Below are positions 19,625-23,710 of a stretch of 43,736 nucleotides of DNA, piece after piece. Within the stretch, counting starts at the first letter, position 1, and the number at the start of each line of letters is the position of its first letter. The position numbers were made by a program, and so were the translations under genes. The notes beneath the pieces were generated by a model that was not told where the DNA came from, made no database searches, and was given only the letters and a program-made list of their open reading frames with translations. Origin of the DNA: a virus; UHGV virus genome UHGV-0197631. The stretch is one strand, 5' to 3'.

Positions 19625-20278
19625 TCATGCCGCCATCTCCCTGACCAGTTTTTCCGCCTGCTGGCGAACCTGCGCCAGAAAGGCCTCACCACATGCCTCA
19701 AGTTCATCGCGCCCGATATAGCTGATTGCCGATCCCTTCCAGGTCTTATCGAAAACAGCAATAGCACCAGCGAAGAAAGCGCCTGTCGGCACCTGCTTCT
19801 CATCCTTCGGGATAAACCAGACAGGCAGTTCAAAACCAATACGCCCGCGAATAAAAGCAATATGGTCTGCATCTTCCGGCCACCACACTTCGCTGGTGGC
19901 AGCTTTGATCAGGAAAACATAACGCCCGCCCTTATCACGCATGGCACTGGCATGTTTCATGATGTAACGCATGCCGGTGATGTATTGCCCCTCATGCTGA
20001 CTGGCGCGGCTGTATGGGGGATTACCAAAGGCAGCACCTTTAAGCTCCGCAAGACGTTCTGACCAGTCATGCGCCAGCGCGTTGTCTTCCGCCGTGTAAT
20101 ACGCAGCACATTTGGTGTTATCACCGTCAGTGAACAGATCCAGAACAAACGGGCCAAACAGGGTGTTAATTCCCCAGAAAATGTTGTCCGGCGTGCGCCA
20201 CTGATCGCCCACTTCCTTCAGTTCATGGGCTGGTTTGTTCCGCAGTTCCACCAGCGCCTGGCAATATTTATTACTCAT
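19625..20278 (-). CDS. phage N6-adenine DNA methyltransferase (Dam-like, orphan)
   Basis: Contains NPPY-type motif (FGNPPY); start set at MSNKYCQ (ATG 20278), which overlaps the upstream stop as TAATG; no cognate nuclease adjacent. Confidence 0.7.
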   Translation of the reverse strand: MSNKYCQALVELRNKPAHELKEVGDQWRTPDNIFWGINTLFGPFVLDLFTDGDNTKCAAYYTAEDNALAHDWSERLAELKGAAFGNPPYSRASQHEGQYITGMRYIMKHASAMRDKGGRYVFLIKAATSEVWWPEDADHIAFIRGRIGFELPVWFIPKDEKQVPTGAFFAGAIAVFDKTWKGSAISYIGRDELEACGEAFLAQVRQQAEKLVREMAA

Positions 20279-20772
20279 TAAGCCCCCACGTAATTCCCTG
20301 ACAGATACCACTCTTCACCCGATGCAGCGCGCTTGCTGCTTTTCCGTAAGCACCGCTCACGACGCACCAGAAAATTGTTTCGTTCTGGCTGGGAGTGGCT
20401 TTCACGGAATGCCGCCATCCACACGGTTGCAGCACGACGGTATAAGCCCCTGGACTCCAGTTCTTCCGCCTGGCGGGTCAGGCACAAAATCACCCGGGGA
20501 TCGTTAGTGCCGACATAGAAATTGCGCACAGGTCTGGATTCACGAACTGGTTGCGGTTCCGGCTCCTGCGGTATCTCAGTCAGCCGCGGGAAATGTCTGC
20601 GTGTATCCCCTTCACAACGGTGAGCCACACGCCCACTCTGACGTAACTTGCTTGCTGACTGCTGAACGCGCTGCCGCGAGTAACCAGCAAAAGCATCCGC
20701 AATGTCTCCGGAAGTACACCCCGGATTGGCTTCAATGAATTTCTGAACGTCATTTAACAGACTCATGATCAC
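20278..20772 (-). CDS. hypothetical protein with N-terminal winged-helix-like region
   Basis: 164 aa; basic C-terminal half; translationally coupled to both neighbours. Confidence 0.35.
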   Translation of the reverse strand: MIMSLLNDVQKFIEANPGCTSGDIADAFAGYSRQRVQQSASKLRQSGRVAHRCEGDTRRHFPRLTEIPQEPEPQPVRESRPVRNFYVGTNDPRVILCLTRQAEELESRGLYRRAATVWMAAFRESHSQPERNNFLVRRERCLRKSSKRAASGEEWYLSGNYVGA

Positions 20773-21710
20773 CCCCTGAATCCTGCCGGGATCTGGCTGT
20801 AGTCCACGTTGTCGTAACTGGCTTTGAAGTACGGGTCTTCACGTTTTTCTGTGTGCGTGCTGACGGACGGCGATAAGCGCAGGGAAAGCTCATCCCATTT
20901 TTCCCGCAACTTCGACGGGCTGAGCACGTTACGGCACCAGAACGGATCGCGGCTGACGCGGCTGTACATCTCGCAGATTTGTTTGTGAGTACGACCATCC
21001 TGCACACACATCAGGCGAATTTCGTTTGCCCAGGCTGTCCAGTTAGGTTCTTTGGGACGAACCACCTCGCCGTCACATTCGGCGGCCTGCTCGTACAGGG
21101 CGATGATTTTTTTCCAGAGCCACTGTGCGCAGGTCAAATCATCCTGCGTTCCCCACTGGCGCTTTTTAGAGCTGAATACAACCGCATCAGGATGACGAGT
21201 TAAAAAATCCTGTTCATCCTTCTTCATGTCCGGTTGCGAAGCGTCCGGACGAGAAGTTTTTTTATCTGACGGATCATGTTTTGATTTTACTGACGGATCC
21301 CCGCCAGATTCTGACGGGTGAAAACCCGCTTTTTTGCCAGATTTCGACGCATCAAATTTTGACGGGTCAGATTTTGATGCGTCAGATTTTGACGGGTCAG
21401 AATCTGACAGTTGAGAAAATGCCGCTGCCTGAAGCTTCGCAACGTTAAGCTGATAAACATTCGACGCATTGCGGTTACCCTGGCGACGCGCCTTACGCGT
21501 TAACCAGCCTTCTGCTTCCAGCCGTGCGATAGCCGTTCTGACGGTACTCATCCCCGCGCCAATCTGGCGGGCAATGGTTTCAATTGATGGCCAGCACACA
21601 CCTTCGTCATTACTGAAATCAGCCAGGCGGGCCATAATTGCCACGCTGGATAACTTCATGCCTGACGCAGCGCAACCATCCCATACATAGCCGGTTAATT
21701 TAGTGCTCAT
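20769..21710 (-). CDS. replication initiation protein (HTH N-terminal domain, iteron-containing)
   Basis: 313 aa; N-terminal HTH (SSVAIMARLADFSNDEGVCWPSIETIARQIGAGMSTVRTAIARLEAEGW); repetitive SDPSKSDASKSDPSK peptide encoded by DNA iterons; lambda O-like position after cro/cII. Confidence 0.6.
   Translation of the reverse strand: MSTKLTGYVWDGCAASGMKLSSVAIMARLADFSNDEGVCWPSIETIARQIGAGMSTVRTAIARLEAEGWLTRKARRQGNRNASNVYQLNVAKLQAAAFSQLSDSDPSKSDASKSDPSKFDASKSGKKAGFHPSESGGDPSVKSKHDPSDKKTSRPDASQPDMKKDEQDFLTRHPDAVVFSSKKRQWGTQDDLTCAQWLWKKIIALYEQAAECDGEVVRPKEPNWTAWANEIRLMCVQDGRTHKQICEMYSRVSRDPFWCRNVLSPSKLREKWDELSLRLSPSVSTHTEKREDPYFKASYDNVDYSQIPAGFRG
21255..21415. repeat. iterons (direct repeats of ~18 bp, GATTTTGACGGGTCAGA-like): candidate origin of replication
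   Basis: At least 5 tandem degenerate copies (tcaaattttgacgggtcag / attttgatgcgtcag / attttgacgggtcag / atctgacggatc...) inside the replication protein gene. Confidence 0.55.
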
Positions 21711-22058
21711 GACCGACCTCTATTTCCCTGAATTTACGACGAAACTGTTCGAGCGGGCTGAAGCACTCATGCTCATAGCCTTCGCGGAGGTAGATAACCC
21801 GTTGTGTTTCCGGCTCCCAACGAATGACTCTGACGGGTACTCCGTAGTGATCTTTGAACCAGCGGTTAACTTGTCGCAAAGGACTGTCTCCTTCTGCCGG
21901 TTGAAATCACCCACAGCCCACTCAGCAAAGCTGTGGGTTACAATTTCCCTGTCACCTGGTACATTAACTGCATAGCAATACTCCACCTTCGCTTTTCCAC
22001 CCGGTACAGGAAGCGCAATCAGTTGCGAGCGACGGTAGTGTGTTGTTAAACTGTTCAT
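21700..22058 (-). pseudogene. frameshifted small gene upstream of the replication gene
   Basis: N-terminal part in one frame ([10 protein letters not shown]...AEWAVGDF); protein-like continuation in another frame (...[56 protein letters not shown]) that ends overlapping the replication gene ATG; the original frame decays into Ser-rich low complexity. Confidence 0.4.
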
Positions 22059-22930: not shown

Positions 22931-22968
22931 GCTACTTAAAGTAGCAAATTGCAACTACTTAAAATAGA
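22931..22968. promoter_or_regulatory. OR-like operator region (17-bp palindrome TGCTACTTAAAGTAGCA plus degenerate copy)
   Basis: Perfect 17-bp palindrome at 22930-22946 and related CTACTTAAAATAG 20 bp downstream, between divergent cro and cI. Confidence 0.5.
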
Positions 22969-22969
22969 A

Positions 22970-23710
22970 ATGACGAGCGTATGTGATGTGAGTAATCTTC
23001 TACCTATGGTAGAAGAACAGAAGTATCCAGATTTCGCCAAGAGACTAAACGAGTTAATGACAAACAAGGGAATTTCTGTCACCCAACTCAAAAGTCTTGT
23101 TGGCGTTACATATGAAATGGCGCGGCGATACACAATCGGCGCAGCGAAGCCTCGTGCCTCTGTCATGAATAAACTTGCGTTGGCTCTGGGGGTATCGGCT
23201 TCATATTTAGAATATGGTGTTGGCGAGAGAGAAGGATGTAAGGAAATGGCAAGCATCCCCAATCCAACAAAACCCGACGTATACAGGATAGAAGTTTTAG
23301 ATCTTAGCGTTAGCGCAGGACCTGGAACCTATATGCTTTCAGACTATGTTGATGTGCTCTACGCCATTGAGTTCACAACAGAACATGCCCGTTCTCTTTT
23401 CGGTAACCGTTCTCAGGATGATATTAAGGTTATGACTGTAAATGGCGATAGTATGTCCCCTACTCTCGTTTCCGGAGATCGACTGTTTGTCGACATTTCT
23501 GTTCGTCACTTCCAGACTGATGGAATTTACTCTTTCGTTTACGGTAAGACTTTTCATGTTAAACGTCTTCAAATGCAAGGTGACAAGCTAGCCGTTCTTT
23601 CGGATAACCCTGCCTATGAGAAATGGTACATCGATGAAAAATCGCAGGATCAGCTTTATGTAATGGGCAAGGCGTTGATTCATGAGTCAATAAAATACAA
23701 TCGGTTATAG
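22970..23710 (+). CDS. cI: CI-type repressor (HTH_XRE + S24 LexA-like peptidase domain)
   Basis: N-terminal HTH, C-terminal Ser/Lys dyad context (NGDSMSPT ... HVKRL); ORF opens at TTG 22949, ATG candidates at 22970 and 23006. Confidence 0.75.
   Translation: MTSVCDVSNLLPMVEEQKYPDFAKRLNELMTNKGISVTQLKSLVGVTYEMARRYTIGAAKPRASVMNKLALALGVSASYLEYGVGEREGCKEMASIPNPTKPDVYRIEVLDLSVSAGPGTYMLSDYVDVLYAIEFTTEHARSLFGNRSQDDIKVMTVNGDSMSPTLVSGDRLFVDISVRHFQTDGIYSFVYGKTFHVKRLQMQGDKLAVLSDNPAYEKWYIDEKSQDQLYVMGKALIHESIKYNRL

Follow-up and report, generated by a model that had tools for sequence, protein, structure and literature searches.

The 43,736-nucleotide stretch of viral DNA that we analysed (hereafter the window) is a lambdoid prophage of the SfII/SfIV/CPS-53 type, and the feature of interest lies inside its lambda-O-like replication initiator gene, which is encoded on the minus strand (Table 1). 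The family phrog_391 'replication initiation O-like' covers the full length of the initiator (E = 1e-134), and the protein is 98% identical to the replication protein of the Shigella phages SfIV and SfII. The gene is also widespread in hosts: at thresholds of at least 95% identity and at least 80% coverage it was present in 1576 of 5426 complete E. coli genomes, i.e., in more than one quarter. Upstream neighbours of the initiator gene include cI, cro, and cII-like genes, while genes for PerC/MarR (yfdN-like), a Dam methylase, a LexA DNA-binding domain protein, RusA, KilA-N, DUF968, and Q are found downstream. Just upstream, two ORFs on the minus strand overlap by 160 nt in different frames, one at 21700-21879 (59 aa; phrog_1343, DUF4222 in RefSeq) and the other at 21720-22058 (112 aa; phrog_1170, gp40 of SfIV); both have strong matches to phage families, and annotators differ in which of the two they choose. 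A pair of 16-bp direct repeats, CTACTTAAAGTAGCAA and CTACTTAAAATAGAAA, lies 23 bp apart at 22932-22970, running from the last part of the cro-cI intergenic region into the opening codons of the called cI-like ORF (22949-23710); these are probably operator sites. A scan for sigma-70 promoters between 20500 and 23100 returned nothing above chance.

The initiator is predicted to consist of an N-terminal winged-helix domain, a disordered linker, and a helical C-terminal domain. Pfam places HTH_36 at aa 23-70, and the AlphaFold2 model of the N-domain, with four helices and a two-strand wing (pLDDT 68-87), matched MarR/ArsR-type winged helices in Foldseek, all of them generic winged helices. No match to Rep_3 was found in the initiator, where the only related signals were weak, below-cutoff hits to RP-C N-terminal (E = 0.004) and DnaD_N; a PDB sequence search recovered weak MarR-type matches to the N-domain alone and no DnaT domain, and an NCBIfam search of the protein was uninformative. 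The linker differs in length between homologues. The C-terminal domain, with model helices at aa 189-278 (pLDDT 80-89) followed by a disordered tail, aligns with that of lambda O (tblastn 35.6% identity, E = 8e-19; BLASTP E = 2e-26). One homologue carries the label 'Replication protein 15', and a link to phi80 gp15 was considered on this basis and set aside: phi80 is absent among the 60 listed of 62 phage records matching the N-domain and linker.

Table 1 Positions in the window of the initiator gene, its predicted domains, and the sites of the candidate origin, with the loci used for comparison of C-terminal tails.
Feature	Position	Strand	Description
Replication initiator gene, lambda-O-like	20769-21710	-	313 aa; ORF, HTH_36, phrog_391
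N-terminal winged-helix DNA-binding domain, aa 1-99	21414-21710	-	AlphaFold2, Foldseek, Pfam HTH_36
Predicted disordered interdomain linker, aa 102-165	21216-21407	-	pLDDT 31-46; carries the entire candidate origin
Helical C-terminal domain, aa 175-280	20871-21188	-	Homologous to lambda O C-terminal domain
C-terminal tail SQIPAGFRG	20772-20798	-	8 of 9 residues identical to the E. coli DnaT C-terminus SQIPPGFRG
Iteron 1	21396-21408		GTCAGATTCTGAC on coding strand; perfect 13-bp palindrome
Iteron 2	21381-21393		GTCAAAATCTGAC (coding strand)
Iteron 3	21366-21378		ATCAAAATCTGAC (coding strand)
Iteron 4	21351-21363		GTCAAAATTTGAT (coding strand)
Iteron 5	21336-21348		GTCGAAATCTGGC (coding strand)
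Iteron 6	21303-21315		GTCAGAATCTGGC (coding strand); 33 bp from iteron 5, 20-nt gap between
Conserved box	about 21266-21299		Two GATCCGTCAG half-sites 24 bp apart; encodes DPSVKSKHDPSD
Least stable 40-bp stretch of the initiator gene, candidate DNA-unwinding region	21251-21290		70% AT
Tail comparison loci	L001-L080; L083 1979-2518	- (L083)	

Tandem Repeats Finder detected one array in the linker-coding part of the gene, at 21338-21401, which can be read with a period of 15 (4.3 copies, score 86) or of 30 (2.1 copies, score 100) and which has the top score among the arrays of the 43.7-kb window. Apart from this array, the early region of the prophage (15-30 kb) contains no tandem family with at least three copies. 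When up to two mismatches were allowed, the 12-mer TCAAAATCTGAC had 13 matches in the 43.7-kb window, eight of them within 21303-21408; in shuffles of the whole window the number of matches averaged 4.8 and never exceeded 11, and the array in the initiator gene is clustered beyond chance. Inspection of the region 21303-21408 revealed six full 13-bp dyad-symmetric sites matching GTCARAWTCTGAC, five of which are phased at 15 bp, so that the repeat unit is the 13-mer GTCA-RAWTC-TGAC with variable spacers of 2-3 nt. These iterons occupy nucleotides 303-408 of the gene, coding for about aa 100-136 within the predicted disordered linker, and the peptide read from them is SDSDPSKSDASKSDPSKFDASKS, with all copies in frame. 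A shorter 10-bp binding unit, TGAC-NN-GTCA, was considered and dropped given that its centre is the variable triplet; we prefer the 13-mer because TCA-AAA-TCT-GAC is conserved and TCAGAWTCTG is kept in phiP27. An earlier note on this DNA, made from the letters alone, had described repeats of ~18 bp at 21255-21415 that lie inside the coding sequence and are translated as a repetitive peptide. Both the placement and the translation hold, but the period is 15 bp, or five codons. Between iterons 5 and 6, at 21315-21338, the plus (antisense) strand carries a terminator-like hairpin, CGGGTGAAAACCCG followed by CTTTTTTG; its core, GGTTTTCACCC, recurs in several homologues of the group referred to below as family A, with one possible compensatory change in locus L006.

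An array of this kind could be maintained for its peptide rather than for its DNA. The repeats would then be a low-complexity, slippage-prone linker of DPSKS/DASKS units with no role as DNA, as might be expected from the single reading frame and five-codon period of all copies in the window, the predicted disorder of the linker, and the differing copy number among homologues. Because all copies in the window share one frame, relatives are needed to distinguish the two levels of selection, and we used 80 loci from other species together with phiNP, mEp460, phiP27, the E. coli variant P0038, and lambda, which were treated separately. Silent identity was calculated at third positions of codons specifying the same amino acid, and for family A nine comparisons were pooled (Escherichia, Pantoea, Citrobacter, Providencia, and others). 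In family A silent identity was 84% in the linker compared to 43% in the N-domain and 46% in the C-domain, and in family B it was 85% in the linker compared to 51% (N) and 48% (C) in the flanking domains; these comparisons share ancestry and are phylogenetically non-independent, and concerted evolution of tandem units together with ambiguous alignment of repeats could inflate the identity somewhat. Amino-acid identity in the linker was not above that of the N-domain. Between the window and phiNP, silent identity reached 97% in the iterons compared to 54% in the N-domain; the iterons differ at few nucleotides, and the majority of these differences alter an amino acid. As judged from these alignments, the pattern in the linker is the reverse of ordinary protein-coding constraint. 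Codon choice was also skewed, with the serine codon TCA used at 83 of 164 positions in the linkers compared to 44 of 226 elsewhere in the genes (Fisher p = 1e-10, relatedness ignored).

Relatives also carry their motifs in both orientations or in different frames, giving unrelated peptides. In family B (N-domain MSSKLHGLVWEGCA...), the unit TTGACCCC(T/C)CAA is present on both strands, and one locus (L011) has seven copies of TTGACCCC and two of its reverse complement GGGGTCAA, which encode DP(S/P) or (E/K)GS depending on orientation. The phiP27 motif TTTGACCCTTCAGAWTCTGG occurs in two reading frames, giving FDPSDSG and LTLQNLD, and two frames are likewise used by GGTCAAARTG in mEp460; the iterons of lambda, taken as a control, fall in three frames. 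Taken together, the silent sites, which are far more conserved than in the folded domains at no higher amino-acid identity, and the disregard of frame and orientation show, at the level of comparative analysis, that selection acts on the DNA of the linker rather than on its peptide, a constraint that a disordered peptide can tolerate. A purely peptide role is largely refuted by these comparisons, and we consider it very improbable. The locus thereby offers a clear example of a cis-acting element embedded in a gene, with silent sites under strong selection as a result.

We reconstructed how the repeats are distributed with respect to the two folded domains of the protein. Matches to motif A numbered 48 in family-A linkers and one in family-B linkers, with eight in 86 kb of flanking DNA at family-A loci, while matches to motif B numbered 33 in family-B linkers and one in family-A linkers, with one in the flanking DNA of family-B loci. 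Across 17 loci and three natural hybrids, the motif type strictly tracks the family of the N-terminal domain and not the C-terminal domain, a switch independent of the remaining protein that further argues against a role confined to the peptide. The hybrids are phiNP, which has a family-A N-domain (87% identical) with the same iterons and box joined to an unrelated C-domain; mEp460, whose C-domain is 98% identical from 'SRPDASQPD' on and which combines it with an unrelated N-domain, other repeats, and an A/T-rich stretch of its own; and E. coli P0038, in which a family-B N-domain and family-B repeats are joined to the C-domain of the window. These combinations indicate that the N-domain, repeats, and A/T-rich box have been exchanged as one unit, which would be expected of an initiator DNA-binding domain and its cognate origin. 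The natural specificity pairs of N-domain and iteron (families A and B, the mEp460 type, and the phiP27 type) also provide material for studying initiator-origin co-evolution inside coding sequence. Over 21240-21420 the window and SfIV share 100% identity, and SfIV was recovered as viable phage particles (PMC3851460). A truncated relative was also detected in E. coli K-12 strains (cryptic prophage CPS-53, yfdO; H43/H44), which match query bases 1-709 alone, equivalent to window positions 20769-21477. The K-12 yfdO keeps the iterons, box, and C-domain without the first ~78 codons of the winged helix, so that the candidate origin DNA is retained there without an intact cognate binding domain.

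It is also conceivable that the silent-site conservation is due to a different feature in the same stretch of DNA, such as an antisense transcript or terminator, a promoter within the gene, or a second gene that overlaps it. The terminator-like hairpin with its T-run on the plus strand at 21315-21338 would be consistent with this, as would the short ORFs that overlap the repeats on both strands, although these ORFs are a consequence of the repetition itself. Neither the change of the repeats with the N-terminal DNA-binding domain nor the position of the array opposite lambda's origin (see below) would be accounted for by an antisense element, and we therefore regard an explanation of this type as highly unlikely.

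Directly 3' of the iterons in the coding direction lies the stretch 21251-21290, which a nearest-neighbour profile placed in the 96th percentile of the window for low stability; as a control, the same profile recovered lambda's AT-rich region, at 80% AT, as the least stable part of O. An adjacent AT-rich unwinding region, for which the earlier note had recommended a search, is thus present as a candidate, but its AT content is only 70% compared to 80% in lambda, and this counts against reading the array as an origin. The box that adjoins the iterons is strongly conserved: GAT CCG TCA GTA AAA TCA AAA CAT GAT CCG TCA GAT was found in all 16 homologues examined, one of which has a very divergent N-domain. 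A GATC lies in each GATCCGTCAG half-site, at 21296-21299 and 21272-21275, and the Asp codon of the box is GAT at 31 of 32 positions across the 16 homologues, a choice that preserves two to three GATC sites. A resemblance of the box to the oriC 13-mer consensus was considered and rejected, as the agreement by eye was poor. The window contains four matches to the DnaA box (TTWTNCACA), all of them over 11 kb away from the array. A gene for a Dam-family N6-adenine methyltransferase is located two genes downstream of the initiator, at 19625-20311 on the minus strand, and a methyltransferase gene is also found close downstream of rep in mEp460, phiNP, and locus L019. The GATC sites and the nearby methyltransferase may represent a candidate methylation control of the origin.

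To place the array relative to a characterised origin, we relied on the homology of the initiator to lambda O. In a colinear alignment of the two proteins, the repeat-encoded residues 100-135 pair with lambda O residues 108-141, for which the lambda iterons ITN1-4 code. The DPSVKSKHDPSDKK box in turn pairs with the residues specified by the AT-rich region of lambda, so that the array occupies the place of ori-lambda within a homologous protein. The earlier note had proposed that the repeats are the likely replication origin of the prophage and mirror lambda ori inside gene O, and this proposal is supported by the homology to lambda O, the silent-site conservation, and the co-variation with the N-domain. 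On this evidence we consider it likely that the array is the lambda-type replication origin of the prophage, located within the part of the initiator gene that codes for the disordered linker. A candidate defined at this resolution provides a precise target for tests of prophage replication, and its sites are ones to avoid, or to use, in recoding and engineering these phages; SfII and SfIV, which share the initiator gene, are serotype-converting phages of Shigella.

Following the model established for lambda (Tsurimoto and Matsubara, as cited in PMC8022706; PMC7466680), we infer that the initiator binds the sites, that unwinding begins in the box, and that replication starts here. The winged-helix N-domain would bind the six 13-bp iterons (21303-21408), probably as dimers, and the resulting nucleoprotein complex would destabilise the adjacent A/T-rich box (about 21251-21300), with its two GATC and two half-sites. 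The lambda-O-like C-terminal domain and the tail would then bring in the host replicative helicase.

The candidate shares several features with lambda ori and with the six-iteron origins of 933W and P27, in that it lies between the N-terminal DNA-binding and C-terminal domains of the initiator and consists of an array of dyad-symmetric sites followed by an A/T-rich stretch in the coding direction. In lambda ori and the Stx phages 933W and P27, iteron number varies among relatives and alters the length of the protein (PMC7466680), and lambdoid phages of different initiator specificity carry their own repeats inside the initiator coding region (PMC8022706). Although the C-terminal domain is homologous to that of lambda O, the initiator here has an HTH_36-type winged helix rather than Pfam Phage_rep_O, and its sites are 13 bp at 15-bp phasing compared to 19 bp and a spacing of about two helical turns in lambda. 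There are further differences in the six sites being accompanied by two half-sites, in the weaker A/T-rich stretch with two conserved GATC, and in the lack of a P gene together with a DnaT-like tail, whereas lambda O ends in NTDWIYGVDL. As in P22 (gene 18) and phage L (gene 18), the initiator and origin form one exchangeable unit, but the repeats are unrelated (11-bp TGTCCAACGGA in phage L, ~20 bp in P22), and the P22 and L modules pair the initiator with a phage DnaB-type helicase (gp12) that is absent here.

Plasmid iteron origins such as those of pSC101, R6K, F, and P1 have sites for a winged-helix initiator beside an A/T-rich region, in some cases with GATC. The candidate resembles the Rep_3 plasmid origins in its tandem sites for a winged-helix initiator beside an A/T-rich unwinding region. 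Rep_3 plasmid iterons are 17-22 bp long, are phased at ~22 bp, and lie outside the rep gene, and their initiators have two winged-helix domains; these origins usually need DnaA boxes, whereas none is near the array here. Origins inside O-like genes are textbook knowledge, and the element described here is very probably of this expected kind, resembling the lambda origin in its layout and differing from it in the DNA-binding domain and in the sites. The literature that we searched on SfV/SfII/SfIV, CPS-53 yfdO, phiNP, and lambdoid iterons does not describe this origin or these iteron families; the 2002 SfV genome paper falls outside that scope and might mention them briefly.

Several observations count against reading the array as an origin. 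Phasing at 15 bp, or ~1.4 helical turns, would turn adjacent sites to nearly opposite sides of the helix, in contrast to the spacing of about two turns in lambda, and the complex may therefore be organised differently. DnaA boxes near the array and a phage helicase loader are both lacking. In addition, two natural variants, P0015 (287 aa) and P0017 (282 aa), are missing most of the 15-bp units, and either few sites suffice or these prophages are defective.

The same sites could bind the initiator for regulatory purposes, such as autorepression, copy-number control by handcuffing, or exclusion of related phages, with replication starting elsewhere. Co-variation with the N-domain shows a link to initiator binding and not to initiation as such, the A/T-rich stretch is modest, and plasmid iterons also have control functions, all of which would be compatible with regulation. 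The position of the array, however, matches that of lambda's origin in a homologous protein, the early region is devoid of any other repeat array, and the exchange of N-domain, repeats, and A/T-rich box together is what would be expected of an initiator and its origin. Given the lambda position and the absence of another array, a regulatory role is less likely than an origin, and we consider it improbable.

No lambda-P-type helicase loader was found downstream of the initiator among the genes of the window. The extreme C-terminus of the initiator instead resembles that of DnaT (Table 1). Within 91 full-length DnaT ortholog clusters, the residues I, P, G, R, and G of the tail are invariant and IPxGFRG is nearly so, while the preceding 15 residues vary. 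We compared tails across 80 loci with a lambda-O-like C-domain, calling P genes with PF06992 or a custom P profile (E from 1e-13 to 1e-132). Where the tail was of the Trp/acidic type (e.g., HWNSPEAWENTL, NTDWINGV, or EWNTxxGW), a lambda-P homologue was the next gene in every case; where it was of the (I/V)PxGFR[GSV] type, a P gene was next in none, and a DnaC-like gene was next in three. Across these 80 loci, the type of initiator tail is thus predictive of the presence of a P gene, as far as the profile-based calls indicate.

A tentative explanation is that SQIPAGFRG mimics the C-terminus of host DnaT and docks the origin-bound initiator to host DnaB-DnaC or to another DnaT partner, thereby replacing lambda P; on the basis of tail similarity and gene neighbourhood we regard this as possible but doubtful. 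The mode of DnaB/DnaC recruitment by DnaT has been described as unknown (PMC13377028). The 2026 preprimosome structure paper does not take up the extreme C-terminus of DnaT, and a text search of the literature for PPGFRG found nothing relevant. This observation is the part of the analysis likeliest to surprise a specialist: it may explain how P-less lambdoid replication modules load the host helicase, and, if true, mimicry of the tail would point to an unknown element of the handover from DnaT to DnaB/DnaC in replication restart.

A different arrangement was observed in phiP27 (L088 2501-5555), in which a related N-domain and related iterons are joined to an unrelated C-terminal part, with genes for a DnaC-like loader and a DnaB-type helicase next in order. 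This arrangement suggests that the origin-recognition module has been combined with at least three solutions for helicase recruitment.
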